Virus record (IMG/VR): IMGVR_UViG_3300045413_000158
Coordinates: 1 to 36,245 of that record
From: a virus
Length of the DNA stretch: 36,245 nt
Reading direction: 5' to 3' (one strand)
The translations under genes were made by a program, and so were the position numbers. The notes beneath the pieces are model-generated. The model was given only the letters and a program-made list of their open reading frames with translations. It was not told the DNA's origin and did not search any database. The number at the start of each line of letters is the position of its first letter. Positions within the stretch are counted from its first letter, which is position 1. Positions 1-36,245 of the stretch are shown in pieces.

Positions 1-127
1 AGCTCACTTTCGACGAAGGAACGAGTTCAGAAGAACACATGTACGCCACGATGAGCGGGGCATCGGGTACTGTGACTCGTCGTGGACTTTCAAAGGTAGA
101 CGCATGGACGGAAGTTGCTGGGAATAA
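1..127. repeat. Terminal overlap copy A (identical to 36119-36245)
   Basis: Read directly: the first 127 nt (agctcactttcgacgaagga...gttgctgggaataa) recur exactly as the last 127 nt. This implies a circular or circularly permuted 36,118-bp unit. Confidence 0.95.
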
Positions 128-4138: not shown

Positions 4139-6214
4139 ATGTCTCTCGTTAGCCAAGCAATTACTATACGAAAAGATACCACACCGAAGAAAAAAGGTGG
4201 GTTAGAGAAATTTGCAGATACCATATCTGCTCCATTTGAAGCAGCAAGTAATCTTCTTGTAAAACCGGTTGTTGAGACATTTGCAAAACCATTTGGTGAA
4301 ACTATTGCTTCATCATATGAACTTGCAGGACGACAAGCTCCAGCATGGACACGAAGTAATCGTCTTTCTTCTCCAGAAATTCTTGCACTTGATCGTGTAG
4401 GGCTTAAGGGGCTTACTTCGAAAAAAGGAATTGCACAGGTACGCAATACTGCACAAGCCATGAAGAATCAGGGATATAAAGGAGCTGGTGCAACTGATAT
4501 TCTTAATGTTCTCTCACTTCTTCCTGGTGGGGCTTTTGCAAAAGGTGGACAAGCGATTGCTCGTGGTGCAGAAGTCGCAAGTGGTGCAGAACGATTTTTG
4601 CCAACGCTTGGGCGTACTTTCAAAGAAACTGTACCCGCTGCTGCTGGTTGGGGAACTGCGTATGGCGCAGCCGAAGCATACGACCAAGATGGATCAGCGA
4701 GGGATATCGCTACAGGTGCTTTGAAAGGTGGTCTTGTCGGTACAGCACTTGGTCTTGGACTTGGTACAGCATCAGCAATAGGAGGTGCTGGACTTCGGGC
4801 ACTTTCAAAGGCAACAAATAAGAGTGTTGCAGAAGAATCTGCTGTACGAAATAATCTTCGAAATTTGAATCAACTTGAAGATAATAATACACCACTCAAG
4901 AAACTTACATCGAAATACATGAGTCAGGGCATCGATGTGAAAGATATGGTATCAAAATCTGATTATCTTAAAGGAGCAGTAGATTCTAATGGTGTGATTC
5001 ATACCCTTCAAGAAGGAGGTGCTCTTTCTCAAGTAGATGATTATATTAAGCCATACGAAAGCGTCGTGAGTGATCTTTTAAAACGTGAAGGTAATACGAT
5101 TGGATTAGATACAGTTGAAGCATCAATGCGTTCAAAAATTGATTCAAGTGGCCTTGAAGGTGAAGCACTTGATGCTGCACATCGAAAGGTCAGTGCAGAA
5201 ATCAGCGGTCTTATACGACGTGCAGATAAGAGCGGCCGTATTCCTGTTGCACTTCTTCAGGATGCGAAGGTAAATAAGTACTCAACAATCAATTATCTTG
5301 ATCCTGCATCAAAAAAAGCAGATAAGACGATTGCACGGACATATCGTGATCTTATCGCGAAAAATACAACTTCTGCTGATGTTAATGCAGTAAATAAAGA
5401 ACTTCAGAAATACTATGCAGTAAAAGCATTTCTTGAGAAACTCGATGGAAGGAAAGTACAAGGAGGAAGACTTGGGAAGTATTTTGCACAAACCGTTGGA
5501 TCAATAGCCGGATCTCACTTTGGCCCGATTGGCTCCATTCTCGGTGCAGAACTTGGTGGCCGTATTCGTGGAATGGGATTAACTTCGACGTTTAATAAAG
5601 GACTCGGAAGAGGACTTACAGAATCCGATATCCTCATGGAAGCAAAAGCGCTCAGTAAAACTCCGCGTCCTCTTGTTCCTGAACATCTCCGGCTTCCAGC
5701 ACCAGATATTTCAAAATCTGGTCCAGTAATTCCACTTCGGGGGCCAACAACGTATGAGTCACGTGCTCCGATTGTTGGTGGTGAAGGACAAAATTTAAAG
5801 ACAGCAGAAAAAATATTAACACAACCTTCCGGTGTAATAGAGGGGAAACTTAAAACTCTACAAGATTTTTCTGATGAGATAAATTCTCGTGTTGATAAAT
5901 TCAGGAAAGAAGCGGGTATTATAGCGAACCGTGAAGGTGCTGGTGTGCGATTACGAAGTGTTGAAGATGGTGCTGGTAATATAAATTTTGTTACAAAAGG
6001 TTTCAATCTGAATCGTGCAAAAGCAAACATGAAAGCACAAGCAGATAGCGCAAAAAAATATGCTAAAACTCTATTATACGATAGTGATGAAGAGTTTAGA
6101 TCCCTTGTAGATTTTTATGATGCTCTTTTAGAAGAAGAAGCAAAAAAAGCAGATACAATACAAAGCATTGATAAAGTACTTCAAAAAATCAACGAAGAAA
6201 TAGACCTCTTCTAA
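4139..6214 (+). CDS. Large virion-associated protein (putative internal/ejection protein)
   Basis: 691 aa. It has Gly-rich hydrophobic segments (GGLVGTALGLGLGTASAIGGAG; VGSIAGSHFGPIGSILGAELGG). Its position after the hydrolase-bearing internal protein mirrors the T7-type layout. The function is inferred from position only. Confidence 0.45.
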   Translation: MSLVSQAITIRKDTTPKKKGGLEKFADTISAPFEAASNLLVKPVVETFAKPFGETIASSYELAGRQAPAWTRSNRLSSPEILALDRVGLKGLTSKKGIAQVRNTAQAMKNQGYKGAGATDILNVLSLLPGGAFAKGGQAIARGAEVASGAERFLPTLGRTFKETVPAAAGWGTAYGAAEAYDQDGSARDIATGALKGGLVGTALGLGLGTASAIGGAGLRALSKATNKSVAEESAVRNNLRNLNQLEDNNTPLKKLTSKYMSQGIDVKDMVSKSDYLKGAVDSNGVIHTLQEGGALSQVDDYIKPYESVVSDLLKREGNTIGLDTVEASMRSKIDSSGLEGEALDAAHRKVSAEISGLIRRADKSGRIPVALLQDAKVNKYSTINYLDPASKKADKTIARTYRDLIAKNTTSADVNAVNKELQKYYAVKAFLEKLDGRKVQGGRLGKYFAQTVGSIAGSHFGPIGSILGAELGGRIRGMGLTSTFNKGLGRGLTESDILMEAKALSKTPRPLVPEHLRLPAPDISKSGPVIPLRGPTTYESRAPIVGGEGQNLKTAEKILTQPSGVIEGKLKTLQDFSDEINSRVDKFRKEAGIIANREGAGVRLRSVEDGAGNINFVTKGFNLNRAKANMKAQADSAKKYAKTLLYDSDEEFRSLVDFYDALLEEEAKKADTIQSIDKVLQKINEEIDLF

Positions 6215-6224
6215 TAACACTTAT

Positions 6225-6329
6225 ATGAAAGGTTTACTTAAACGTAGCAAAGAAAGACTAAAAAAGTTACGAACTATAAAATTGAAACTCGAAACAAATA
6301 GAAAACTGATAGAAAAATCAAAAAACTAA
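6225..6329 (+). CDS. Micro-ORF, 34 aa, very basic (MKGLLKRSKERLKKLRTIKLKLETNRKLIEKSKN)
   Basis: ATG-to-TAA frame read by hand in an AT-rich gap. It is below the ORF-track cut-off, and there is no other support. Confidence 0.25.
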   Translation: MKGLLKRSKERLKKLRTIKLKLETNRKLIEKSKN

Positions 6330-6462
6330 ATGTTTTTAATCTTCAAAAAGTTTTGGTAATCGATAAACCATCCACCAGATTACGAATATGATTACGAGAA
6401 TATGAAGCATATGCCTAGAGTATAGAATAAAAAACAGGCTACTTTACAACAAATCCACAGGT

Positions 6463-6490
6463 TCGTCAACGTGAGTCACTATGTTATACT
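6463..6490 (+). promoter_or_regulatory. Candidate sigma70-type promoter (TCGTCA-16 bp-TGtTATACT)
   Basis: An extended -10 (TGt TATACT) lies at 6482-6490 and a 4/6 -35 at 6463-6468. It sits about 50 nt upstream of the 6541 gene, after a 326-bp gap. Confidence 0.3.
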
Positions 6491-6540
6491 AAAACCATCA
6501 ACGACCTTCCCGAATGGGATGAGCCGTCTTTTTTACTTCT

Positions 6541-13015: not shown

Positions 13016-13222
13016 ATGTCAGCAGAAGGAATTGGCAAGAAATGGTACATGTCACGGGGTGTATGGATCGCTGTGCTCACTTTTCTTATTGGTGCATCGG
13101 ACGTCATCATTGAATTGATCCGTTCTGAGGACTACTCAGCAATGGGAATTGCAATGGCGGTTGCCGGAATCCTCAAGTTTGCAGAACGGATGACATCAAA
13201 TGGTGAGCCAGTGAATCTCTAA
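13016..13222 (+). CDS. Holin-like small membrane protein
   Basis: 68 aa with two hydrophobic helices (VWIAVLTFLIGASDVIIELI; MGIAMAVAGILKFA). It lies immediately after the endolysin and is the last gene before the terminator. Confidence 0.55.
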   Translation: MSAEGIGKKWYMSRGVWIAVLTFLIGASDVIIELIRSEDYSAMGIAMAVAGILKFAERMTSNGEPVNL

Positions 13223-13252
13223 AAAAAAGAAGCCGTAATGGCTTCTTTTTTT
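13221..13252 (+). terminator. Intrinsic terminator ending the late/lysis operon (A-tract, hairpin, T-tract; potentially bidirectional)
   Basis: aaaaaaaa GAAGCC gtaat GGCTTC ttttttt. The stem is 13229-13234/13240-13245 and the T-run 13246-13252. Confidence 0.8.
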
Positions 13253-13290
13253 ATAAAAAAATAGTGCGCGGTTTCACCTAACCACCGCGC
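13253..13290 (-). terminator. Intrinsic terminator ending the - strand early operon
   Basis: On the - strand: GCGCGGU-ggttaggtgaa-ACCGCGC followed by ACUAUUUUUUU. The stem is 13266-13272/13284-13290. Confidence 0.7.
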
Positions 13291-13301
13291 GAAGGTTTCG
13301 T

Positions 13302-13505
13302 TCACAACATAGAATTAAAGACTATGAACTCTTTTCTTTCAAAATAGTGTGAAATTACACCATTAAATTCATGCCCTTCTCCTTGTTGTTTTTTATGGAG
13401 TGTATGGATGAAAGACTCTACCTTTGTTTCTGAAGGGAATCGAACATTCCAGCCACAGATATGACATGTCACACGTATAACCTGAACCAGATCATCGTTG
13501 TGCAT
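13302..13505 (-). CDS. Small protein with a CxxC motif (67 aa)
   Basis: The start is taken at the internal ATG (MHNDDLVQVIRVTCHICGWN...). The longer track ORF (to 13640) overlaps the upstream zinc-ribbon gene in another frame. Confidence 0.5.
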   Translation of the reverse strand: MHNDDLVQVIRVTCHICGWNVRFPSETKVESFIHTLHKKQQGEGHEFNGVISHYFERKEFIVFNSML

Positions 13506-13719: not shown

Positions 13720-13838
13720 TGTTGCACACGGCGGTCGTAGAGACAGGCGTGAAGGATCAGAAGCGGCAGAATGCACGCAAACAAGATACTTGGCTTCTCT
13801 ATTGCAGCCCACATGATCCACGAATGAAAGAACGACAT
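13716..13838 (-). CDS. Micro-ORF, 40 aa, hydrophobic (MSFFHSWIMWAAIEKPSILFACILPLLILHACLYDRRVQQ)
   Basis: Hand-translated. It is preceded by GGAGGAatcactATG, one of the very few strong Shine-Dalgarno sequences in the genome. It is coupled to the next gene by an ATGA overlap. Confidence 0.45.
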   Translation of the reverse strand: MSFFHSWIMWAAIEKPSILFACILPLLILHACLYDRRVQQ

Positions 13839-13951
13839 AGTGATTCCTCCACAACTGCTCACATTCTTTGGGAGAATATCATCTCAAAAGGAGGATAATG
13901 AGATAATACACGGCCGAAGCCAGGAACATCAGCATGTGAGGAGGAATCACT
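13839..13951 (-). promoter_or_regulatory. Structured intergenic RNA that can sequester the Shine-Dalgarno sequence of the 13838 micro-ORF
   Basis: A perfect 12-bp inverted repeat (13839-13850 / 13940-13951) pairs AGUGAUUCCUCC with GGAGGAAUCACU on the - strand. The enclosed region has an 11-bp hairpin with CCUCC in its loop and a GGC-UUCG-GCC hairpin. Confidence 0.5.
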
Positions 13952-13968
13952 GAGAGTATATCACGTTT

Positions 13969-14304
13969 TTATACTGTATTTTTTGCCTCTTCCAAGAAAT
14001 ACTTTTGAGCGGCTTTGAGAGAACGGATCAATTCCTCGATTGCTTTAATTCGTCCGGTGAGTTTAATGACTCGTTTTCCTTCATCGCTTCCACGAACAAG
14101 CTGCTTTGCTTTTGCTGATGTTACTGTTTCATCTTTGAGAAGCTCACACTCCATCTTTGCGGTGTCCGCCAGCGCATCACATAATTCTACGGAATATTGT
14201 GCAAATATACTTGTGAGAAATGAATAGTAATGGACCACATTTGCTGGAGTAAGACTATCCGGTCGCTTCATGTGATCGATGATCCCTTCGATTGTAAATT
14301 CCAT
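13969..14304 (-). CDS. Hypothetical helical protein (111 aa; alternative start at 14271)
   Basis: ORF from the track. The ATG at 14271 forms an ATGA overlap with the upstream stop and would give 100 aa. Confidence 0.6.
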   Translation of the reverse strand: MEFTIEGIIDHMKRPDSLTPANVVHYYSFLTSIFAQYSVELCDALADTAKMECELLKDETVTSAKAKQLVRGSDEGKRVIKLTGRIKAIEELIRSLKAAQKYFLEEAKNTV

Positions 14305-15581: not shown

Positions 15582-15959
15582 TCACGGCCGAACCCACAGC
15601 ACATTATCTGCTTTTGTTTTATTACACTCGTGACAACATGTGACAAGGTTTCTTTTGTCATTTGTTCCACCTTTTGAGACCGGAATAATGTGATCGATTG
15701 TGAGATTCATTTTCTCCACCACCTTCAGTGCACGACGGAGAGTATCGGAGAAGACAGGGTAATTGTTATGAAGGGCGACGATATAATTTGCATCCTCAAT
15801 TTCGCATGCTGGCCATTCAGTGCCAGATGCAACACCAGGGGCTATATCCACTAAAGAAGGATATGCATCACTCCATGGCTCAGAGATATTCCACTCACCC
15901 TGTGTCGCTTTTTCGCGTAGTTCATCCAACACGTCGAGTATTTTTAGGATGTCTTGCAT
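15582..15959 (-). CDS. Ead/Ea22-like N-terminal region fused to an HNH nuclease motif
   Basis: 125 aa. ...EKATQGEW...EIEDANYIVALHNNYPVFSDTLRRAL resembles the Ea22-like pattern. The C-terminus IDHIIPVSKGGTNDKRNLVTCCHECNKTK is a classic HNH core. Confidence 0.55.
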   Translation of the reverse strand: MQDILKILDVLDELREKATQGEWNISEPWSDAYPSLVDIAPGVASGTEWPACEIEDANYIVALHNNYPVFSDTLRRALKVVEKMNLTIDHIIPVSKGGTNDKRNLVTCCHECNKTKADNVLWVRP

Positions 15960-17462: not shown

Positions 17463-18110
17463 TCAAAACGGTATTTCTTCGAGTGGTATAGTCTCTGTAG
17501 CCTCTTGTGGTGTGCTCGGCGGTACGAATCGTTCACCGGCCTTGTATTTGTTTCCACATACTCCCGAACAATTCATCGCATTCGGGAATTTCGCGTCTAC
17601 TGCGAACGTTTTATTGCACACAGCACAATTCTTCGTATTTTGCTTTTGCGACGATCCTGAGGCATTTGGTGTGGTCTGGGAGGCCTTCGGTGCGACTTCG
17701 TGTGTCTGCGTCTCGGTATCTTTCTCGTCTTCTGTTGGGATACAGAATAGTTGCATCATGGCGTACTTGTACGCTGCGCTCATTGCCTTGTTGCTACCCT
17801 TATCTCCACTGTCCATAGCTTCACCGATGGTAACGAGGCGTACATTCGTCCCATCCGAGGCATAAACGGTAAATTCTACATTGAGGATAGTGTAGAGAAG
17901 TAATCCGCCCTTTGTGCTCGTTCGCTCCTCACGTTTCTCAGAGAGAACAACTGGACAAAAGAACACTCCATACCTCGAAAGAATAGGATTGAGTGCGTTG
18001 TACACGTCGTCGATCCCACGGAACTTATAATTTTGTAGATCGTTCTTACGATCCTTTGAGATAGGCTCAATCTCCTCCATGACTTTCTGAATGCTTTGGT
18101 AGATGTTCAT
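17463..18110 (-). CDS. erf: ERF-family single-strand annealing recombinase
   Basis: 215 aa from MNIYQSIQKVMEEI. NYKFRGIDDVYNALNPIL, GEAMDSGDKGSNKAMSAAYKYAMMQLFCIPT match the ERF signature. The start is taken 1 nt after the upstream stop. Confidence 0.75.
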   Translation of the reverse strand: MNIYQSIQKVMEEIEPISKDRKNDLQNYKFRGIDDVYNALNPILSRYGVFFCPVVLSEKREERTSTKGGLLLYTILNVEFTVYASDGTNVRLVTIGEAMDSGDKGSNKAMSAAYKYAMMQLFCIPTEDEKDTETQTHEVAPKASQTTPNASGSSQKQNTKNCAVCNKTFAVDAKFPNAMNCSGVCGNKYKAGERFVPPSTPQEATETIPLEEIPF

Positions 18111-18111
18111 A

Positions 18112-18273
18112 CTACATGCTTGCTTTAAGGCCGATAAATAAGAGTGCAGTACCAATCACGAACATTCCGAGGATCACGAACCACACGCCTTTCTCGATGC
18201 GCCACTGTCGATGTTCACGCTTCACGGCACGAATGCCTGGAAGTGCCCAGTTGCTGTATTGAGGCTTGTACAT
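18112..18273 (-). CDS. Small membrane protein (53 aa)
   Basis: The start is taken at the ATG of the TAATAATATG junction (18273). It has one transmembrane helix (VWFVILGMFVIGTALLFIGL). The track start is a TTG. Confidence 0.5.
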   Translation of the reverse strand: MYKPQYSNWALPGIRAVKREHRQWRIEKGVWFVILGMFVIGTALLFIGLKASM

Positions 18274-18590: not shown

Positions 18591-18847
18591 AGCGATGGGT
18601 TAATTTCTGGCTCTTGGTATCCGTGTTCTTTTACCTTTGCACGTCCCCATTCTTGGATGCGTTCAAATTCTCTGGCATTACTCATGGCAAGATCATATTT
18701 CAGTTTAATCACTCGCTGAATAATGTCAGATGCCTGTTGCTTTGAAAGGTGTGTCTCGATCCATTTTGTGCAGTGCTCTTGATTCTTCTCTTTCGTATAC
18801 AATTTCTTGCCAATCACTTCTGCTTGTTTTGCGGTGCATGGTTCCAT
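18587..18847 (-). CDS. Hypothetical protein (86 aa)
   Basis: ORF from the track with an ATG start. It is the first gene after the internal promoter/hairpin. Confidence 0.6.
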   Translation of the reverse strand: MEPCTAKQAEVIGKKLYTKEKNQEHCTKWIETHLSKQQASDIIQRVIKLKYDLAMSNAREFERIQEWGRAKVKEHGYQEPEINPSL

Positions 18848-18867
18848 AGAATGACATTAGGAACGAG

Positions 18868-18915
18868 AAGCCACAGAGCATCAGACAGTCGAGACCATGT
18901 GATGTTCTGTGGCTT
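18868..18915 (-). promoter_or_regulatory. Long 5' UTR hairpin (16-bp stem, 16-nt loop), 21 nt upstream of the 18847 start
   Basis: aagccacagagcatca / tgatgttctgtggctt are complementary apart from one G:U position. Confidence 0.5.
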
Positions 18916-18947
18916 TTGAAGGTGGAGGCTCTCGCCATCACGAAGGT

Positions 18948-18975
18948 ATCATACCACGCCATTAGTGAAAGGCAA
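18948..18975 (-). promoter_or_regulatory. Candidate sigma70-type promoter (TTGCCT-16 bp-TGgTATGAT) inside the early block
   Basis: On the - strand the -35 is 18975-18970 and the extended -10 is TGgTATGAT, with its hexamer at 18953-18948. It lies just downstream of the terminator at 19018-19046. Confidence 0.4.
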
Positions 18976-19017
18976 GTTTATGTTGTGTATATCTCATAAA
19001 TAGCCTGATAGAAGTGA

Positions 19018-19046
19018 TAAAAACACAAAACCACAGTTTCCCGTGG
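19018..19046 (-). terminator. Intrinsic terminator after the first early gene
   Basis: On the - strand: CCACGG-GAAA-CUGUGG (GNRA loop, one G:U pair) followed by UUUUGUGUUUUU. Confidence 0.65.
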
Positions 19047-19072
19047 CGTGTGTGTACCGACCATTGTTTTCT

Positions 19073-19384
19073 TTAGAGTGTTTTGATCAGAGTATCCATC
19101 GCCTCGATGAAGTCAGACACCTTGTCAAGCTTCATGAGTTTCTTGTCTTGGAGCGCCTTGATAATCTCGAAAGCTTGCTTCCCCTTATCTTGTGCTCGTT
19201 CCTGGAGATAAACGGGATACGATTCTTTAATGACGGTCGGGTAGTACCAGTTCGACCAGCAATCCCAAGTCGTCGACGGCCAGTACCCAAAGTTTGCACT
19301 ACCTGACGTTATTGTTCCTGTCTGAGGGAGAACAGTATTGCCCGTAACAAACGCATCCATGAGTGCCTGTGAGTGTGAATCCAT
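19073..19384 (-). CDS. First early-block protein, function unknown (103 aa; the track ORF extends to a GTG at 19450)
   Basis: The first ATG gives MDSHSQALMDAF.... The N-terminal half is Trp/Tyr-rich and the C-terminus helical (AFEIIKALQDKKLMKLDKVSDFIEAMDTLIKTL). Confidence 0.55.
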   Translation of the reverse strand: MDSHSQALMDAFVTGNTVLPQTGTITSGSANFGYWPSTTWDCWSNWYYPTVIKESYPVYLQERAQDKGKQAFEIIKALQDKKLMKLDKVSDFIEAMDTLIKTL

Positions 19385-19450
19385 AGATAGTGCGTGGGCG
19401 GGATAAGCGACCACGGAATAGTTAGGATCGGTACTCCTCCATAGTAACAC

Positions 19451-20117
19451 AATACCGCCCCGGAGGAGAGCGGTATGTGTGGTAACGCGGATAGTTTGTC
19501 CCTAATTTCGACGAGGCGTTCTGTGAGCGAACAATGATGGGTGTAACTTGGGGCCGCGTTTCACGCGTAAGGTAACGCGGCTATCCTGCGAAGCTAGCAA
19601 TAGGAGTTCAATTCTTCGGTTCGCACCGAACTGGAATTTCTCCCATAGGAACATCACCATTGTACTATTGTGGATTTTCTACTGAACCGTGGAAGGTGTT
19701 GATAAATGAACTAAAACACCCCCTATGCCTTTCGGATAAGAGGTGTTATAGTCTTTATCGTTGGAAATAAAGGATGAGTAAAGTATTTCATTACTTGTCA
19801 TCCTTGTCAACCGACAGGGATATTTTTATCCCGAATCTCTGACGGGAAGGTCGGGTGAACCGATAGAGCCTCCGTTGGCTGCCAAGTTAAATCTATCGGA
19901 TTGATGTTTGTGATGTCCACGGCAGCATCCGTGGTGGACTCAAAGCTTCAATCTCATATTACGTCAACCGTACCAACGTAATATGTTATAGCCAATCTCC
20001 ACCGAGGTGGGGCGAGGACAGGGAAACGGTGCAGGGGATCGAAGGTTTCTTCTCCCTGAAAGAGCTGGCTCACCAGACGGGCTTTTGTTCTTCTTTTGGA
20101 TCTAAAGCTTCAAGGCT
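19451..20117 (-). ncRNA. Candidate large structured RNA, or an unusually long structured 5' leader, transcribed from the - strand
   Basis: 667 nt have stops in all six frames, and the sampled GC is about 55-57%. At least 12 local hairpins are present. Five of them gain G:U pairs and/or GNRA loops (GAAA, GAAA, GCGA) only when read on the - strand. The class is unknown. Confidence 0.4.
19782..19810 (-). promoter_or_regulatory. Candidate - strand promoter inside the structured region (TTGACA-17 bp-AATACT)
   Basis: A perfect -35 (TTGACA) lies at 19810-19805 and a 4/6 -10 at 19787-19782. The -35 overlaps a TGACAAG-ga-TGACAAG direct repeat. Confidence 0.3.
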
Positions 20118-20600
20118 ATGAAAAAGAAATTGACTCAGGAATATCTTAGCTATATTCAATCATCTGATTGGTTTAAAAAAGCTCAAAGAATTAGAGATAG
20201 AGACGTAGTGTGTCAAGGTTGCGGGTCGGAAAAGAATTTGGATGTGCACCATAAAACGTATAAACGCTTTAAGCACGAAAGTGATGAAGATTTAATATTA
20301 ATATGCAGACAATGCCATGAACAGATCCATAAAAAGAAAAAGAAATCGAATCTTGATAAAGTAACTAATAAGCTAATTAAAATGACACAAAATAGAGCGA
20401 TGAGATTTGATAAGCTTGATGAAAAGTGTAGAAAGTGCGGCGGTATTCTAATTATGAGACAAGCAAAACTCACTGAGAAACGGTTAAAACGCGCATATCA
20501 TTTTTGTCATTTTAAGCAATGCTTGTCATGTTCTGCATTTTTTATGCTCGAGGAATTTAAGACATATCCAAATGAAAGTTGTAATTGTGAGCGTGTATAA
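20118..20600 (+). CDS. Free-standing HNH endonuclease with a C-terminal zinc ribbon
   Basis: 160 aa. SSDWFKKAQRIRDRDVVCQGCGSEKNLDVHHKTYKRF...DLILICRQCHEQIH is the common phage HNH pattern, and a second CxxC...CxxC lies at the C-terminus. The gene is markedly AT-rich (first 60 nt are 27% GC) relative to its GC-rich flanks. Confidence 0.8.
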   Translation: MKKKLTQEYLSYIQSSDWFKKAQRIRDRDVVCQGCGSEKNLDVHHKTYKRFKHESDEDLILICRQCHEQIHKKKKKSNLDKVTNKLIKMTQNRAMRFDKLDEKCRKCGGILIMRQAKLTEKRLKRAYHFCHFKQCLSCSAFFMLEEFKTYPNESCNCERV

Positions 20601-20738
20601 GGGTTGGGAAAGAGCCGTCTCAAAAAAGAGAGCGGTAGTTTAGCTATACATGTCAGCTTCATGCCTGTGAGTAACTCTATGCACATGGGTGTATAATGTT
20701 TTTTGTCACAAGGTTGCGATTACCCCCGCAACGTGTAG

Positions 20739-20806
20739 AAAACTCTTTTTCCCTGGTGCCTGATCCGCAAGGATTCGGGGGGTACGCCAGGGGAGAAGAG
20801 TTTTTT
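20739..20806 (+). terminator. Long terminator/attenuator hairpin immediately upstream of the replication gene
   Basis: The 18-bp basal stem aaaactctttttccctgg / ccaggggagaagagtttt has two G:U pairs that are valid only on the + strand. The upper stem is tipped by a GCAA tetraloop (20767-20770). A T6 run follows at 20801-20806, and the ATG at 20835 is 28 nt downstream. Confidence 0.6.
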
Positions 20807-20834
20807 ACATCCTCATTGGGGCGAAGAAGTTTAT

Positions 20835-21575
20835 ATGGATACAGGATGGATCAAGATTCATCGAAAGCTGCTAGATAATCCCACGGTTATGAAAGACGCC
20901 GACCATTTCGCGATATGGGTTTGGCTTCTTTTGAAGGCAACGCATGAGGGCATCGACGTAATCTTCGGAGGAGAAAGAATTACCCTATCACCTGGACAAT
21001 TTACTACCGGAAGAAAGGTTATCTCTAATGCTTTGGGCGTTTCTGAAAGTAAAGTGCAACGTGTTTTATCTTGCTTCGAAAGTGAACATCAGATTGAACA
21101 ACGAACAGATAGACAATGTAGGCTAATAACAGTACTAAAATGGTCTGAGTATCAAAAACGTGAACAACGAAATGAACATCAAATGAACAACGATCGAACA
21201 ACGAGTGAACAACGAGTGAACACTAAACAAGAATGTAAGAATGAAAGAATGAAAGAAACTGAGAGTGAGGCGACTACGTCGCTCGCTCCCATAAAAACAA
21301 AAAAGACTCCATCACAGATTGCTCATACATTCTTCGAAGATGGCGCGGATCATACCCAGACGATTGAGTACCTCGTTGGAAAGGGCGTACCAGAAGAAGT
21401 AGCAAAACAAGAGATGGCAAAGTTTATCTCTTACTGGACTGAGCCAAATAAAAGCGGGACGAAGGTGAGGTGGCAGGGAGAAACACACTTTGATCTCAAA
21501 AGGAGAATGGTGACATGGTTCAGCCGCATCCGAGGATATAGTGAAAATAAAGAATCTAAAGGAATCAAACTATGA
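20835..21575 (+). CDS. Replication initiation / replisome-organiser-like protein (winged-helix N-terminus, Phg_2220_C-like C-terminus)
   Basis: 246 aa. GWIKIHRKLLDNP...HFAIWVWLLLKA...TGRKVISNALGVSESKVQRVL is an N-terminal DNA-binding fold typical of phage replication organisers. The C-terminus has F..YW....K.G...RWQ....FDLKRR...W. An iteron array lies in the central linker. Confidence 0.6.
   Translation: MDTGWIKIHRKLLDNPTVMKDADHFAIWVWLLLKATHEGIDVIFGGERITLSPGQFTTGRKVISNALGVSESKVQRVLSCFESEHQIEQRTDRQCRLITVLKWSEYQKREQRNEHQMNNDRTTSEQRVNTKQECKNERMKETESEATTSLAPIKTKKTPSQIAHTFFEDGADHTQTIEYLVGKGVPEEVAKQEMAKFISYWTEPNKSGTKVRWQGETHFDLKRRMVTWFSRIRGYSENKESKGIKL
21083..21226 (+). repeat. Iteron array (putative origin of replication) inside the replication gene
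   Basis: TGAACAACGA or close variants occur at 21083 (variant), 21095, 21161, 21173 (variant), 21184, 21195, 21206 and 21217 (variant). The last six are spaced 11-12 bp apart. An AAGAATG x3 A-rich tract follows at 21229-21255. Confidence 0.65.
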
Positions 21576-24199: not shown

Positions 24200-24322
24200 A
24201 TGAAGACAGTCGCATCCCTCATTGAGGATTTACAGAAGCTCCCACCAGATTCCGAAATTACTTTTCAAGTCACGATCGCAGTAAAAGAGAATCAGAATAC
24301 AGAAGAAGCTCCCGTGGAATAA
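24200..24322 (+). CDS. Micro-ORF, 40 aa, acidic (MKTVASLIEDLQKLPPDSEITFQVTIAVKENQNTEEAPVE)
   Basis: Hand-translated. It starts 2 nt after the upstream stop (TAATTATG). Confidence 0.45.
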   Translation: MKTVASLIEDLQKLPPDSEITFQVTIAVKENQNTEEAPVE

Positions 24323-24336
24323 CCATGGGATAATGT

Positions 24337-24657
24337 ATGTGGAGCATCAGGAGAAAAAAAGATCTAAACGCAATCCACATACCAGGACGACGTTCGAGTA
24401 GGGATTTTGTCGAACATGCGTTGTGGGAGTACGATATGCTCAACGTACTTCACAAGAAAGTAGCGGTGTATTGTCCTCTCTGCTTTTGTTGGTATATTCC
24501 CGAAGGATATGAGCGTACATGCTCGAATGCTCAATGTGATAATTTTGAACGAGATGTCGAATTTGTTTATCCGAAGTATCATGAAGAAGAAAATCTCCGC
24601 CTTGTGCGATATGAGATGTATCGCCTCCCACCGGAGAAATATAAAAAGAAATACTAA
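24337..24657 (+). CDS. Cys-rich hypothetical protein (106 aa)
   Basis: ORF from the track. CPLCFC...CSNAQC suggests metal binding. Confidence 0.55.
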   Translation: MWSIRRKKDLNAIHIPGRRSSRDFVEHALWEYDMLNVLHKKVAVYCPLCFCWYIPEGYERTCSNAQCDNFERDVEFVYPKYHEEENLRLVRYEMYRLPPEKYKKKY

Positions 24658-24731: not shown

Positions 24732-25832
24732 ATGAAGATATCTGAAATAAAAACTTCATTACTGATCCCATATAGTAGAAATGCAAAAAAGCATCCGAAG
24801 GATCAGATTGAGAAAATAGCGGCATCGATTAAACAATTTGGATTTCGTCAGCCACTCGTTATTGATAAAGAAAACGTGGTTGTTATTGGACATGGAAGAT
24901 TGGAAGCAGCAAAGGTACTGAAGCTTGAAACTGTGCCATGTCATTACGCAGATAATCTCACGAAAGATGAGATAAATGCGCTAAGACTAGCGGATAATAA
25001 GCTCAATGAAAGTGAATGGGACATCGAACTTGTGCAGATGGAGTTAGATGAGATTTCTGAAGAACTCCGACCACTCACGGGGTTTGATTCGATGGACATT
25101 ACAAAGGGTGAGGACGACGATTTCGATACTACACCAGCCGTCGGGGAACCTAAGGCCAAGATGGGCGACGTATACGCGCTAGGCGAGCATCGTTTGATGT
25201 GCGGTGACAGTACGAAACTGGAAGATGTGGAGAAACTGATGGGAGGGGAGAAGGCGGATATGGTATTTACAGACCCGCCTTATGGTATTTCACACTCTGG
25301 AAAAGGTATTGAAGGGGTTGTTCAAGGGAATGATTTTGGAGAGATTTTAGGTGATGGGGATGTAAATATCGCAAAAGAGGCCGTAAGAATTTTGTTAGAC
25401 ATGGGCGTCCCGAGTGTTATTTGGGGAGCAAATTATTTTCCATCAGTTTTTGAGGACGGTCATGGATGGATTGTATGGGATAAACAACGTGAAGGGGATA
25501 TTTGGTCTGGCGCGGAAATTGCCTATTCTAATATAGGCGTTCGTGTAGATATTTTTCGTCATCAATGGCATGGGATGGTGAAGGAAAGCGAACACGGAGA
25601 AAAGCGCATACATCCAACGCAAAAACCAATTGCGCTCGTAAATTGGTGTATAGAACGCGTTGGTAATCCGCGTATAATTTTGGATGTATTCGGCGGTTCT
25701 GGTTCGACTCTCGTTGCCTGTGAGCAGACAGGTCGCAAATGCCGCATGATGGAGTTAGACCCGAAATACGTGGATGTCATCATCACACGATGGGAGAAAC
25801 TTACCGGTAAAAAAGCAGAGTTAATCAGCTAG
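24732..25832 (+). CDS. ParB-like nuclease domain fused to a DNA methyltransferase (N6A/N4C, DPPY type)
   Basis: 366 aa. The N-terminus has QPLVID...VVIGHGRLEAAKVL (ParB N-domain). The centre has MVFTDPPYG, and the C-terminus ILDVFGGSGSTLVACEQTGRKCRMMELD (AdoMet-binding motif). Confidence 0.85.
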   Translation: MKISEIKTSLLIPYSRNAKKHPKDQIEKIAASIKQFGFRQPLVIDKENVVVIGHGRLEAAKVLKLETVPCHYADNLTKDEINALRLADNKLNESEWDIELVQMELDEISEELRPLTGFDSMDITKGEDDDFDTTPAVGEPKAKMGDVYALGEHRLMCGDSTKLEDVEKLMGGEKADMVFTDPPYGISHSGKGIEGVVQGNDFGEILGDGDVNIAKEAVRILLDMGVPSVIWGANYFPSVFEDGHGWIVWDKQREGDIWSGAEIAYSNIGVRVDIFRHQWHGMVKESEHGEKRIHPTQKPIALVNWCIERVGNPRIILDVFGGSGSTLVACEQTGRKCRMMELDPKYVDVIITRWEKLTGKKAELIS

Positions 25833-25835
25833 TAT

Positions 25836-26228
25836 ATGGCACAGGGGATTGCTAGGAATAAGGAAGAAGTTCTCGAAGTATTACGACCATACTTCCAGCT
25901 TGGATGTAGTGTTAATAAAGCCTGTAAGTATGCAGGCATACCTGAGTCTACTGTAGATACATGGTTAGCAGCAGATGACGATCTTCGGGCAAAAGTAGTC
26001 GCATGGCAGAACGAAATTAACGCTAAGGCTCGCGCAAATTGGCGTGCGAAGATTGCATCTGGTGACTTTGAACCATCGAAACAATGGCTCGAACGTACGG
26101 AGAAAGATGATTTCAGTATAAAGACCGAGACTGATATTACAACGGGTGGTGAGAAGATAAACGGTGATATAGTAGAAAAGGTAACGAGTGCACTCGATGA
26201 GTACTTTGCTCAAAGAAATACTCAGTAA
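25836..26228 (+). CDS. terS: Terminase small subunit (putative)
   Basis: 130 aa with an N-terminal helix-turn-helix-like segment (CSVNKACKYAGIPESTVDTWL). It lies directly upstream of, and overlaps, the large terminase gene. Confidence 0.6.
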   Translation: MAQGIARNKEEVLEVLRPYFQLGCSVNKACKYAGIPESTVDTWLAADDDLRAKVVAWQNEINAKARANWRAKIASGDFEPSKQWLERTEKDDFSIKTETDITTGGEKINGDIVEKVTSALDEYFAQRNTQ

Positions 26229-27762
26229 CGGAACCGACGCTGAGAAGAAAGCTCTCTTTCAATTTTCCTCACAGGATAATGAGGAGAGGATTTTATTGAA
26301 GTTTAATCTTTGGGCGCGGTACTTCATGCCTCAATACTTTGAGAGTCCGGATGCACCATTTCACGAGGATATTAACCGGAACAATCTCCAAGCATATCGA
26401 GGTGCACTGGATTATTTTGTTGATATTGCATTTCGTGGTGCTGGTAAGGACGTAAAGACTAAGCTCTTTATTGCATATACAATCCTCAACGATACTGAGC
26501 ATACTCGGAAGTATTACAAGATTTTATCAGCAGACCTTACAAATGCACGACAATCTGTCACAGACATTTACAATATGTTCGTGAACCCACGTGTGATTGC
26601 GATGTATCCCGATACGCTGCAAAAGACGCAGTACAAAAGGGAAGAACAGATGGGATCATTTACGACTGCATCGGGGATTAAAGTGATTGCAGATACGGTA
26701 GGAACAGAACAACGGGGTGCAATCCAGGAAGCAACACGTCCCGATTTTGTTTGGCTGAACGATTTTGAAACACGCAAGACACTCCGTTCAGCGATTATTA
26801 CGCGTGCTATATGGGATAACATGGAAGAAGCACGAACCGGTCTCCAGAAAGGCGGAGCGATGGTTTTTACTTGTAATTATATTTCTGAGCTTGGGAATGT
26901 TCATCGGCTTGTTACAGAGAAGAAAAGCCCACGGAAGAAGGTGCTGATTGTTCCAATACGCAATGACGATGGTGTTGTTGCCTGGAGCCGGTATACGAAA
27001 GAGGATATTGCGGAAATGGAACGGACGGATGATGACTTCGAGGGGGAACGTCTTTGTAAGCCTTCAGCATCAAGGGATGTTTTATTTGACCGCGAGAGGT
27101 TAGATGCAATGCCGACACCACAGCCAAAGCGAGAGAGTGCAGGATTTAAGATATTTAAGGAGTTTGATCCGTCCCATCGCTATGGGAGTGGCCATGATGT
27201 TGCAGGGGGAGTTGGGCTTGATAGCTCAACATCGGTGTTTATTGATTTTGATGTAGTGCCTGCACAAGTTGTTGGTACATTTTATTCAAATACATTACAG
27301 CCAGAGCCGTTTGGTGCTGAGGTATATCGCGAAGGGCAGATATTCGGTGGATGTATTCAAGCAATCGAGAATAATAAGTTTGACCAAGCAATCCTTAAGG
27401 CAAGACAGATGGGGGCAAATCTCTTCATGACGCAACCAAAGGATACGAAAGTGGATCATACAATGCCGACAACATATGGGTGGAATACGAACAGTCTGAC
27501 AAAGCCAAAGATGCTTTTAGCACTTGCAAAGGCGATTGAGGACGGTTTTATTCAGCTCAATGATCCTGACCTTATCCAAGAGGCAAGAAGCTATTCCCGT
27601 AATGATCTTATGGATAGAGAGGAAGATCCTCGACTTACAACAAGACACTTTGATCTTTTGACGGCATGTGCTATTGCATGGCAAATGAAGGACTTTGCAT
27701 TTAATGCTATGATCAATAGGAAACAACATAAAACAAATGTAAAACTTACCAAGTGGGGATAA
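26197..27762 (+). CDS. terL: Terminase large subunit
   Basis: 521 aa from the first ATG (the track start at 26188 is a GTG). It has the Walker A-like FRGAGKDVKT, the Walker B-like PDFVWLNDFE and a C-terminal nuclease-sized domain. It sits upstream of the portal gene. Confidence 0.8.
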   Translation: MSTLLKEILSNGTDAEKKALFQFSSQDNEERILLKFNLWARYFMPQYFESPDAPFHEDINRNNLQAYRGALDYFVDIAFRGAGKDVKTKLFIAYTILNDTEHTRKYYKILSADLTNARQSVTDIYNMFVNPRVIAMYPDTLQKTQYKREEQMGSFTTASGIKVIADTVGTEQRGAIQEATRPDFVWLNDFETRKTLRSAIITRAIWDNMEEARTGLQKGGAMVFTCNYISELGNVHRLVTEKKSPRKKVLIVPIRNDDGVVAWSRYTKEDIAEMERTDDDFEGERLCKPSASRDVLFDRERLDAMPTPQPKRESAGFKIFKEFDPSHRYGSGHDVAGGVGLDSSTSVFIDFDVVPAQVVGTFYSNTLQPEPFGAEVYREGQIFGGCIQAIENNKFDQAILKARQMGANLFMTQPKDTKVDHTMPTTYGWNTNSLTKPKMLLALAKAIEDGFIQLNDPDLIQEARSYSRNDLMDREEDPRLTTRHFDLLTACAIAWQMKDFAFNAMINRKQHKTNVKLTKWG

Positions 27763-35982: not shown

Positions 35983-36245
35983 ATGTCTACGATTACTCTC
36001 CCAAAAATTCTTGCAAATTTCACTACGACGCTCGCGGCGACGATGAGCGCATCGGCGACAACGTTCACGCTGGATCGATCTACTGATCCAGACGGTACAA
36101 CACTTTCTGGGCTGTATGAGCTCACTTTCGACGAAGGAACGAGTTCAGAAGAACACATGTACGCCACGATGAGCGGGGCATCGGGTACTGTGACTCGTCG
36201 TGGACTTTCAAAGGTAGACGCATGGACGGAAGTTGCTGGGAATAA
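35983..36245 (+). CDS. Tail fibre protein, N-terminal part (continues at base 128 after removing the overlap)
   Basis: The ATG at 35983 gives MSTITLPKILANFTTTLAATMSASATTFTLDRSTDPDGTTLSGLYELTFDEGTSSEEHMYATMSG.... It is open to the window end and in frame with ORF 39..1631. Confidence 0.75.
   Translation, partial: MSTITLPKILANFTTTLAATMSASATTFTLDRSTDPDGTTLSGLYELTFDEGTSSEEHMYATMSGASGTVTRRGLSKVDAWTEVAGN
36119..36245. repeat. Terminal overlap copy B (identical to 1-127)
   Basis: Same exact 127-nt string as at the window start. The overlap lies inside an open reading frame, so it is not an intergenic physical end. Confidence 0.95.

Follow-up and report, generated by a model that had tools for sequence, protein, structure and literature searches.

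The window analyzed here (the whole 36,245-nt stretch of DNA) holds a complete, circular phage genome of about 36.1 kb, of lake-water origin and with a 127-nt terminal repeat; because the genome is complete and circular, nothing is hidden outside the window. Gene orientation switches at a long intergenic gap, with all leftward genes on the - strand and all rightward genes on the + strand, in agreement with the divergent operons proposed for this region in the original prediction. From left to right, the region comprises a - strand gene for a small protein (19073-19384), the gap (about 19361-20117, or 19385-20117), an HNH endonuclease gene (20118-20600, + strand), a folded leader (20713-20810, + strand), and a gene for a DnaD-like replication organizer/helicase loader (rep; 20835-21575, + strand; phrog_2514, E value of 8e-34). 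Among public sequencing runs, the sequence was found in one DNA run and in no RNA run. An Rfam scan of the whole window gave no matches at gathering score, and the best match in a scan of 19300-21000 had an E value of 0.08. No integrase or repressor was recognized among the unassigned ORFs tested. Most genes of this phage lack Shine-Dalgarno sites.

The first - strand gene had been thought to start at 19450. Its 181 homologs have variable N termini and align only from about residue 25, which places the probable start at the ATG at 19384 or 19360 and gives a product of 95 to 103 aa (95 aa according to the gene caller). Because the gene probably starts at one of these two positions, the gap measures about 733 to 757 nt. 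The protein is a member of a widespread family of small proteins whose C-terminal ~65 aa are conserved (YYPxVIRESYPVYLQERAxDKGKQAFEII...). The contexts of its homologs are not syntenic; in one locus (L001), the homolog adjoins another HNH gene and terminase genes. A terminator-like hairpin with a U-run (19030-19047, - strand) lies just past the stop codon of the 95-aa gene, and beyond it is a promoter-like site (18975-18948, - strand) that would serve the next - strand genes. The gene appears to be a self-contained cassette.

The HNH gene is an intact ORF of 160 aa, and profile searches bore out its earlier identification. The protein matched Pfam family PF01844 (HNH) above the curated cutoff (E value of 2.1e-5, 25.0 bits versus a cutoff of 21.4), with residues 32 to 73 covering profile positions 1 to 47 of 47, and it also matched eight PHROG families annotated as HNH endonuclease. 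By inspection, its ligands are C32xxC35...H44H45...C63xxC66-H67...H71, and C32xxC35, H44-H45, C63xxC66, H67, and H71 are all invariant in an alignment with protein P0002. The N-terminal HNH/zinc module (about residues 6 to 75) is accompanied by a second, C-terminal Cys-rich module (about residues 100 to 159; 104 to 157 by inspection), which is also found on its own. The HNH module has 18,788 representatives and the full two-domain architecture only 3; domain shuffling may lie behind this architecture. An AlphaFold (AF2) model built from a two-sequence alignment had a pLDDT of 45, and a PDB sequence search returned no match below an E value of 0.18. We found no RuvC or other guide-RNA-binding domain in the protein with Pfam and PHROG profiles.

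At 32.9% GC, the HNH gene is the lowest among 40 genes (mean of 42.1, standard deviation of 3.6), and no more than about 1% of 483-nt windows reach a GC content this low, which agrees with its earlier description as compositionally foreign. Recounting also reproduced the GC contents given for its first 60 nt (20118-20177; 26.7%, earlier 27%) and for 19981-20040 (56.7%, earlier 57%); the flanks, which had been estimated at 50 to 57%, averaged 47%. The ORF lies between genes, outside any intron or intein, and just as no interrupted gene had been noted at first, we found no split gene or exon halves on either side. A short hairpin with a weak U-run in the MFE structure (20613-20636, + strand), a short way 3' of the stop codon, may mark the end of the HNH transcript. 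Imperfect direct repeats bracket the ORF (20058-20072/20608-20622 and 20106-20121/20655-20670); a target-site duplication was considered and rejected, as the local alignment score is at the level of chance (p about 0.06).

The block between the HNH gene and rep (20601-20834) had been described as structured on the + strand, and its whole fold has a z score of -6.8. The folded portion is 20713-20810 and consists of two hairpins on the + strand. Hairpin A (20713-20732) has a 6-bp stem and an 8-nt loop. Hairpin B (20733-20810), which is supported by its fold, conservation, and covariation, comprises 34 bp with a U-run: the 26-bp lower stem has an A-run on the 5' side and a U-run (UUUUUU, 20801-20806) on the 3' side; above it, across an internal loop of 5 nt on the 3' side, an apical stem of 8 bp is capped by a GCAA tetraloop. 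From the end of hairpin B to the rep ATG there are 24 nt. With a stable stem and a U-run on the transcribed strand, hairpin B has the form of an intrinsic terminator or attenuator. A simple terminator scan missed it, owing to the internal loop and the length of the hairpin. A TATAAT -10-like element (20692-20697, + strand), 15 nt upstream of hairpin A, is a candidate rep promoter; in six relatives (L046, L006, L055, L047, L048, and L049), a -10-like hexamer likewise precedes hairpin A, by 14 to 27 nt.

Rep-bearing relatives without the HNH gene have a leader of this kind as well. In L046, the closest rep relative (68% amino acid identity in rep), a divergent gene for a small basic protein lies 240 nt upstream of rep. 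Homology of the window with L046 picks up again at about 20703-20712, the left side being without a covering relative, and the leader (20703-20822) is about 95% identical at the nucleotide level, compared with about 72% for the rep coding sequence. In an alignment of the window, L046, L006, and L055, five of the six pairs of hairpin A show compensatory double changes, and 100% of cells are paired. Across the leader, 98.4% of cells are paired, compared with 52 to 61% when the structure is slid, and none of 500 shuffles was as high; eight pairs have double changes, and in hairpin B the G-U at columns 31-98 is invariant. The GNRA/UUCG apical loops and the conserved G-U pairs point to an RNA on the + strand. 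Leader hairpins in six relatives fold with z scores of about -7. Eight more distant relatives, also without the HNH gene, have a terminator-like hairpin with a U-run 2 to 20 nt before the rep ATG, preceded in five of them by a short hairpin A; the U-runs are present in nine of nine relatives. Hairpin A analogs of unrelated sequence occur in L047/48 and L049, and the same leader architecture with unrelated sequence is found in other relatives. Since a covariance model of the leader (R1) recovers close relatives alone (the window, L046, and L006), the distant leaders were compared by their own folds. The motif is absent from Rfam. In these comparisons, the conservation and covariation of the leader are independent of the HNH gene, and we assign the folded stretch of the right block to the DnaD-like replication gene, as its leader, and not to the HNH gene.

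In the mechanism we propose, the leader would act at the RNA level on the + strand, in the order -10-like box, hairpin A, and 34-bp hairpin B with its U-run, and hairpin B would be an attenuator or terminator that has to be read through for rep to be expressed. Alternatively, it could be an RNase III-type processing site; its long stem resembles the RNase III processing sites of T7 and of the lambda N leader. In lambda, tR1 precedes O-P and is read through by N, and in pT181, antisense-RNA-driven attenuation occurs upstream of repC. Like these leaders, the one described here has a stable U-run hairpin between the candidate promoter and the initiator start, with no room for a second promoter. 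It differs from them in its unusually long stem (34 bp, with an internal loop and a tetraloop), and no antiterminator, nut/put site, or antisense promoter was identified here. As a covariation-supported RNA upstream of DnaD-like replication-organizer genes, the leader may offer a handle on replication timing.

The distribution of the HNH gene at the rep locus is sporadic. None of the rep-bearing relatives examined has it at the corresponding site (upstream of rep in L046, L006, L055, L047, L048, L049/50, L056, and L057), no HNH gene was found within 3 kb of rep across 80 genome loci, and in a tblastn search of 137 loci, HNH matches were rep-proximal only in the window and in L038. Among the other rep-bearing relatives examined, L038 alone has the gene, which is therefore dispensable. 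A search of the source run for a variant without the HNH gene returned one contig and no joints. The homolog in L038 lies downstream of rep and a gp116 homolog, with overlapping ORFs and no RNA flank, and the homolog in L028 precedes a primase-like gene; neither has any noncoding flank. In Streptomyces phages, homologs lie beside DnaE. The homolog in L027 (64% amino acid identity) is the first + strand gene, as in the window, and follows an unrelated gap of 494 nt that is mildly structured (z score of -3.1). This shared placement could reflect a positional or functional preference instead of random insertion.

We consider it probable that the HNH ORF was acquired horizontally as a free-standing endonuclease gene, most likely a selfish or accessory cassette of the homing type, and that it sits in an accessory island that measures ~1.7 kb (roughly 19030-20711) and separates the promoters of the leftward recombination operon and the rightward replication operon. 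The left limit of the island is marked by the terminator-like hairpin at 19047-19030 and the promoter-like site that follows it. Within the island, two monocistronic units would lie back to back, the gene for the 95- to 103-aa protein on the - strand with its terminator and the HNH gene on the + strand, and overlapping divergent promoters near 19782-19824 would probably drive both. Homing activity of the HNH protein, use of the candidate promoters, and termination are inferred. A free-standing invader was one of two explanations offered at first, and it fits a gene that is intact, foreign in composition, missing at the corresponding sites of rep relatives, and located elsewhere in L038.

Free-standing phage HNH HEGs, such as T4 mobE, are known, and HEGs occur at genetic-exchange boundaries (Barth et al. 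2023, PMC10448857; PMC2790892). Like them, the HNH gene described here is small and intergenic, with candidate expression signals of its own, has modular domains and a foreign composition, is sporadic among related genomes, and lies beside an essential replication gene at a mosaic boundary. Unlike them, it carries a rare C-terminal Cys-rich module (three full-length representatives) and is located in a divergent promoter region, not between co-directional conserved genes. Because the right-hand RNA belongs to rep, the locus is an example of ordinary phage mosaicism and not of a new RNA-protein system; it adds one more nuclease gene at a mosaic boundary beside essential phage genes, with the idea of an RNA-protein unit set aside.

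An alternative hypothesis, which we regard as unlikely, is that the phage has domesticated the HNH protein, for example as a nicking or processing nuclease of replication/recombination or as an HK97 gp74-type packaging helper, and that its gene occupies the first slot in the rightward operon so that the protein is made early. The homologs in or beside replication modules (after rep in L038, with the primase-like gene in L028, and with DnaE in Streptomyces phages) and the first-gene position in L027 are consistent with this hypothesis, as are a weak match of the protein to a PHROG family labeled terminase small subunit and the name "terminase GpA-like" that one source gives to P0002. However, the terminase-labeled matches span the HNH module alone, the terminase genes (TerS, 25836-26228; TerL, 26188-27762) lie at a distance of 5.2 kb, with more than 10 genes in between, and both the dispensability of the gene and its foreign base composition argue against domestication. 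Terminase-associated HNH proteins of the HK97 gp74 type were reportedly described by Kala et al. in 2014. The protein in the window shares with that type its small size and a zinc-binding CxxC pair, but its gene neither adjoins terminase or portal genes nor is conserved in relatives.

The gap to the left of the HNH gene is an orphan. None of its reading frames has an ORF longer than 52 aa, no Rfam family was recognized in it, no homolog was found among 137 fetched loci, and its sequence is present in one public sequencing run only; in a blastn search of both blocks against all loci, the rep leader was the sole match. At about 730 nt, this noncoding DNA is longer than promoters and terminators would require, which counts against the reading favored here, as does its rank as the strongest fold outlier of the genome. 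The whole fold of 19451-20117 has a z score of -5.0 on each strand. In a genome-wide scan of 200-nt windows (n = 722), 19701-19900 was the most extreme (z scores of -6.3 and -5.8), and the top nine also included 19801-20000, 20601-20800, and 20701-20900, all on the + strand; 19701-20000 and 20601-20900 are thus two stretches among the most extreme fold outliers of the genome. The scan was unremarkable at 19401-19700 and 19901-20200. The left block is therefore structured, as first described, but not throughout, its signal being local and about 300 nt long.

The - strand polarity first assigned to this block held for part of it. The preference flips near 19780-19800, with the - strand favored to the left and the + strand to the right. 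At 19701-19760, the - strand folds better (-26.5 versus -18.2 kcal/mol); the hairpins at about 19800-20094 fold better on the + strand, with the exception of the palindrome at 19949-19998. The leftmost of these features is a - strand hairpin with a GAAA tetraloop (19706-19748), followed by UUUUAGUU, with G-U pairs on the - strand only and free energies of -23.6/-26.5 kcal/mol on that strand versus -13.2/-18.2 on the + strand. Located about 30 to 70 nt downstream of a - strand promoter-like site, it resembles a terminator or attenuator of - strand transcripts. That site (TTGACA-17-AATACT with TG, 19810-19782, - strand) overlaps back to back with a + strand site (TTGTCA-18-GATATT, 19795-19824), together spanning 19782-19824. 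Both are matches to the sigma-70 consensus only, and the six such promoter-like matches found are not above the number in shuffles (3.9 +/- 1.9). A palindrome (AAGGATGA...TCATCCTT, 19771-19806) and a + strand hairpin with a T-run (19800-19831) overlap the two sites. Farther right, a series of + strand hairpins within 19855-20094 (19863-19900, 19918-19941, 19995-20011, 20032-20058, and 20060-20085) is a candidate leader of the HNH mRNA. Within the series lies a strand-neutral, perfect 10-bp inverted repeat (CATATTACGT-N11-ACGTAATATG, 19955-19985) that looks like an operator.

Several other candidates in the gap were considered and rejected. A weak + strand match to an Arg-GCG tRNA cloverleaf with mismatches (19556-19625; 22.8 bits against a gathering score of 29, E value of 0.08) was found by ARAGORN only at the 80% threshold, where shuffles give about 14 hits per 36 kb, and is probably a chance match or a decayed relic. 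Reading TAG as a sense codon opens a 175-codon frame, but its translation is not supported by homologs of the downstream gene, which have unrelated N termini. The Bacteroidetes-type promoter TAnnTTTG does not occur in the gap and is not enriched across the window. Relatives have a small KGG-type gene at this position, but tblastn gave no signal for a remnant of it.

We suggest that the left block is lineage-specific noncoding DNA in which promoter-like sites, palindromes, and terminator-like hairpins would serve the two cassettes. It is quite unlikely, in our estimate, that the gap is an undescribed structured RNA or switch for the two cassettes or for early divergent transcription or, separately, that hairpins A and B represent an uncatalogued, widespread class of cis-regulatory RNA that gates the expression of replication initiators. 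We give slightly less credence still to the hypothesis that the left block (about 19385-20117), independently of the HNH gene, is one or more new structured noncoding RNAs or a cis DNA element (for instance, a second origin or a regulatory hub). In its favor are the most extreme fold of the genome, the GAAA tetraloop with its strand-specific G-U pairs, and 730 to 757 nt without an ORF, and GOLLD and other large ornate RNAs are known to be carried by lake phages (10.1101/2024.12.08.627333). Against it, the signal is confined to about 300 nt that amounts to separate simple hairpins in a promoter- and terminator-like context, and neither a homolog nor an Rfam match was found.

The second of the initial explanations, that the HNH gene and its flanking RNA or RNAs form an RNA-protein unit (an RNA-guided or scaffolded nuclease or a degenerate intron-like mobile element), is extremely improbable: strong structure is predicted on either side of the gene and the L027 homolog likewise follows a long, somewhat structured noncoding gap, but 20713-20810 is kept beside rep where the HNH gene is absent (a structured flank without HNH in relatives, which had been named in advance as counting against such a unit), the L038 and L028 homologs have no noncoding flanks, similarity between the left gap and the L027 gap is not significant (p of 0.14 to 0.27), the protein has no RuvC or guide-RNA-binding domain, no gene is split, and no Rfam intron, HEARO, GOLLD, or ROOL family matched even at an E value of ≤10. 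HEARO RNA adjoins IsrB, a protein of about 350 to 400 aa with RuvC and HNH domains. The likeness to HEARO-IsrB and to intron-encoded HNH endonucleases (I-HmuI and I-TevIII) that had been drawn at first extends to an HNH ORF bordered by well-folding sequence and was not upheld by any family match in 19300-21000 at an E value of ≤10. Unlike the I-HmuI and I-TevIII introns, the window has no interrupted gene and no group I/II match (E value of ≤10); unlike the HEARO/IsrB omega-RNA, it has no RF02033 match at that threshold. The protein, as noted originally, is far too small for the IsrB type, with 160 aa, an HNH domain only, and no RuvC, PLMP, or bridge-helix parts, and the right-hand fold belongs to another gene. 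With the GOLLD and ROOL covariance models, nothing in the window reached gathering score.

There are 634 homologs of rep. Its N-terminal domain is spread over many phyla in genome contigs, and therefore no conclusion about the host was drawn from them. The rep gene contains internal iterons, GAACAACGA-type units at 21079-21217, and in this respect resembles lambda O, which has origin iterons inside the initiator gene. A block at 21181-21262 is identical to that of L046. The iteron block has very high nucleotide conservation and is common to metagenomes from many biomes.

An exact 127-nt direct repeat at the two ends of the window (1-127 and 36119-36245), together with a single lake-water metagenome contig of 36,148 nt that spans the window, shows that the phage genome is a complete circular assembly of ~36.1 kb (about 36,118 bp). 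Structural, lysis, and packaging genes occupy the + strand at 24.7-36.2 kb and 0-13 kb. The - strand block at 13.3-19.4 kb encodes, among others, an ERF recombinase (17463-18155), and another + strand block begins at 20118 with the HNH ORF, followed by the gene for a DnaD-like replication organizer (rep; 20835-21575, +; phrog_2514, E 8e-34), which has iterons inside its coding sequence. The leftward operon also contains a second HNH endonuclease gene (15582-15959, -; 125 aa), which matches many PHROG HNH families (best E, 1e-12) and is unrelated to the one at 20118. Neither an integrase nor a repressor was recognized when ORFs were scanned against PHROGs and Pfam. Shine-Dalgarno sequences are absent before most gene starts, the Bacteroidetes -7 motif is not enriched upstream of them, and rep N-domains are present in so many phyla that rep does not fix the host phylum. 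Immediately upstream of the small terminase gene, 24732-25832 (+) encodes a DNA methyltransferase with a fused ParB-like domain at its N terminus.

As the original prediction had it, the ORF at 20118-20600 (+) encodes an HNH protein and is AT-rich. The 160-aa product belongs to the HNH superfamily: its Pfam HNH score exceeds the threshold, and it has the zinc and catalytic residues, all of them shared with P0002, a homologue with 64% amino acid identity. The GC content of the gene, 32.9%, is the lowest among the 40 genes of the window; its flanks, predicted at 50-57% GC, have 47%. The lowest GC of the genome (29-35%, below that of the HNH gene) lies at 5741-6230, at the 3' end of a 691-aa ORF (4139-6214). 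Structured blocks had been claimed on both sides of the gene. Folded whole, the left block (the noncoding gap ending at 20117) has a z score of about -5 on either strand and the right block (20601-20834) one of -6.8 on the + strand. In a genome-wide scan of 722 windows of 200 nt against dinucleotide shuffles, 19701-19900 was the most extreme outlier, on both strands, and 19801-20000, 20601-20800, and 20701-20900 (all +) were within the top nine; 19401-19700 and 19901-20200 were ordinary. The structure signal is genuine but local. The prediction is partly confirmed: it stands for the HNH gene and for local structure (19701-20000 and 20601-20900) and is corrected for flank GC and for the extent of the structure. 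Further outliers (z of -4 to -5.6) occur at 13101-13400, where the + and - strand blocks converge, and at 13801-14000, 18801-19000, 24301-24500, and 4701-4900 (-).

The closest relative of the rep protein (68% amino acid identity) is encoded by L046, a Logan contig that lacks an HNH gene and in which a gene for a small basic protein diverges 240 nt upstream of rep. The two DNAs are ~72% identical through the rep coding sequence, with far higher identity in two islands, one of which is 20703-20822 (113 of 120 columns identical). In this island, a short hairpin A (20713-20732) runs straight into hairpin B (20733-20810), which has 34 bp, a 5'-side A-run, a 3'-side U-run and internal loop, and a GCAA tetraloop, and which ends 24 nt before the rep ATG. 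Loci L006 and L055 (rep identity, 52-53%) have the same leader architecture, with changes that preserve pairing. In the four-sequence leader alignment, 98.4% of cells pair, compared with 52-61% when the partners are slid 1-3 columns; compensatory double changes affect five of the six pairs of hairpin A, and a single G-U pair does not vary. Among more distant loci, L047/L048 and L049/L050 (rep, 49-54%) have hairpin A and a long terminator-like hairpin B of unrelated sequence, and L056 and L057 (47-49%) have a long hairpin with a U-run before rep; the leader hairpins of distant relatives stop 2-20 nt before the rep ATG. A z score of about -7 was obtained in each of six leaders tested (window to L049). 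In the window, L046, L006, L055, and L047, the apical loop reads GCAA, GAAA, or UUCG. In all of these relatives, near and distant, the region upstream of rep lacks an HNH gene. Judged by this conservation, the right block belongs to rep and not to the HNH gene; on this flank the structured leader is kept with rep in relatives where the HNH gene is absent, an outcome that the original prediction had itself named as telling against it.

The G-U pairs and the GCAA, GAAA, and UUCG tetraloops point to a function of the leader as + strand RNA. In all six relatives with hairpin A (L046, L006, L055, L047, L048, and L049), as in the window (TATAAT, 20692-20697), a -10-like hexamer precedes that hairpin by 14-27 nt, which would place the HNH gene upstream of rep's own candidate promoter. 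The leader may be an attenuator or terminator that would have to be read through for rep; alternatively, it could be an RNase III-type processing site. The interest of the region comes mainly from this leader RNA, which is independent of the HNH gene and backed by covariation, and from the unexplained orphan gap. The second identity island, the iteron block (GAACAACGA-type units), matches L046 at every position of 21181-21262, within rep coding sequence of ~72% identity. The 601-nt stretch 20700-21300 (leader plus iterons) aligns at ~77% with DnaD-like genes of Staphylococcus phages, and 31-mers from it recur in 23 other metagenome runs (sludge, soil, sea, gut, and sediment). The iteron block resembles an origin cassette that has been exchanged widely.

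In a word-indexed search, the HNH protein had a single close homologue, P0002. With an exhaustive HMMER search, its N-terminal HNH module yielded 18,788 representatives, and of these only 3 have the full two-domain architecture; the C-terminal Cys-rich module was also found alone, a distribution that resembles domain shuffling. In L027, the locus of P0002, the homologue comes first among the + strand genes; the 494-nt gap before it is unrelated, and the downstream genes differ from those of the window. The homologue in L038 follows rep and a gp116 homologue in overlapping ORFs with no noncoding flanks, that in L028 precedes a primase-like gene, and that of Streptomyces phages adjoins DnaE. Among 137 fetched loci, ~100 of which were picked for carrying rep, the window and L038 are the only cases of this HNH gene near rep. 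The window shows the largest GC deficit for the gene; in L027 the deficit is mild, and L038 has none. A repeat flanking the ORF in the window is at chance level.

Among phages, the HNH gene occurs sporadically, and its position shifts from one genome to another. Its sporadic presence, differing contexts, module shuffling, and GC deficit are the signature of a putative free-standing accessory or homing-type nuclease gene, in support of the first of two readings proposed originally, a free-standing homing endonuclease in the regulatory region. Apart from precise insertion boundaries, the gene shows the features of such endonuclease genes that sequence can test. Free-standing nuclease genes have been described at exchange boundaries, adjoining essential phage genes (PMC10448857), T4 mobE being one example (PMC2790892); the HNH gene likewise lies at a mosaic boundary, beside the essential rep gene. 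The second reading, that the gene and its flanking RNA form a functional unit, is unsupported, since the right-block hairpins are kept with rep without the HNH gene. Intron-encoded HNH, HEARO/IsrB, terminase-associated HNH, and GOLLD/ROOL were each ruled out by a tested defining feature.

The left gap is noncoding by an ORF check and, because the first - strand gene (95 aa) most likely starts at 19384 or 19360, is somewhat longer than first stated. No Rfam family matches it at E <= 10, neither the fetched loci nor the L027 gap shows similarity to it, and it is present in a single public run, compared with the 23 others that share words with the leader and iteron stretch. Two promoter-like sites, one on each strand, divergent and overlapping, occupy 19782-19824, where a palindrome overlaps them. 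To their left is a GAAA-loop hairpin with a U-run (19706-19748), stable only on the - strand, and to their right comes a series of hairpins that mostly favor the + strand when folded. The gap also has a perfect 10-bp inverted repeat at 19955-19985. The 95-aa gene has a terminator-like hairpin of its own (19047-19030, -), and after it comes another promoter-like site, which would serve the remaining leftward operon. Such an arrangement is consistent with transcription signals serving two cassettes placed back to back and, with that hairpin and promoter-like site, makes ~19030-20711 look like an accessory island between two core operons. At its place, most relatives hold only the small basic-protein gene or a short spacer. 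Because promoter-like matches are no more numerous than in shuffles and ~750 nt exceeds the need of promoter and terminator signals, we retain a modest probability that the left block encodes something new. The L027 gap upstream of the HNH homologue contains a long near-perfect hairpin and then UUUUU (6418-6512, +); nothing in the window is related to it in sequence.

In relatives, the gene that diverges from rep encodes a small protein that is very basic and has KGG-type repeats (L006 4613-4789, L055 802-978, L046 97-259, and L047 671-838, all -); of this gene the window has no trace. The small protein encoded at 19073-19384 (-) belongs to a large family (181 hits), in which the C-terminal ~65 aa are strongly conserved and the N-termini are of low complexity. 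At another locus, L001 (4093-5267), a homologue of this protein is found after a different HNH gene and before the terminase genes.
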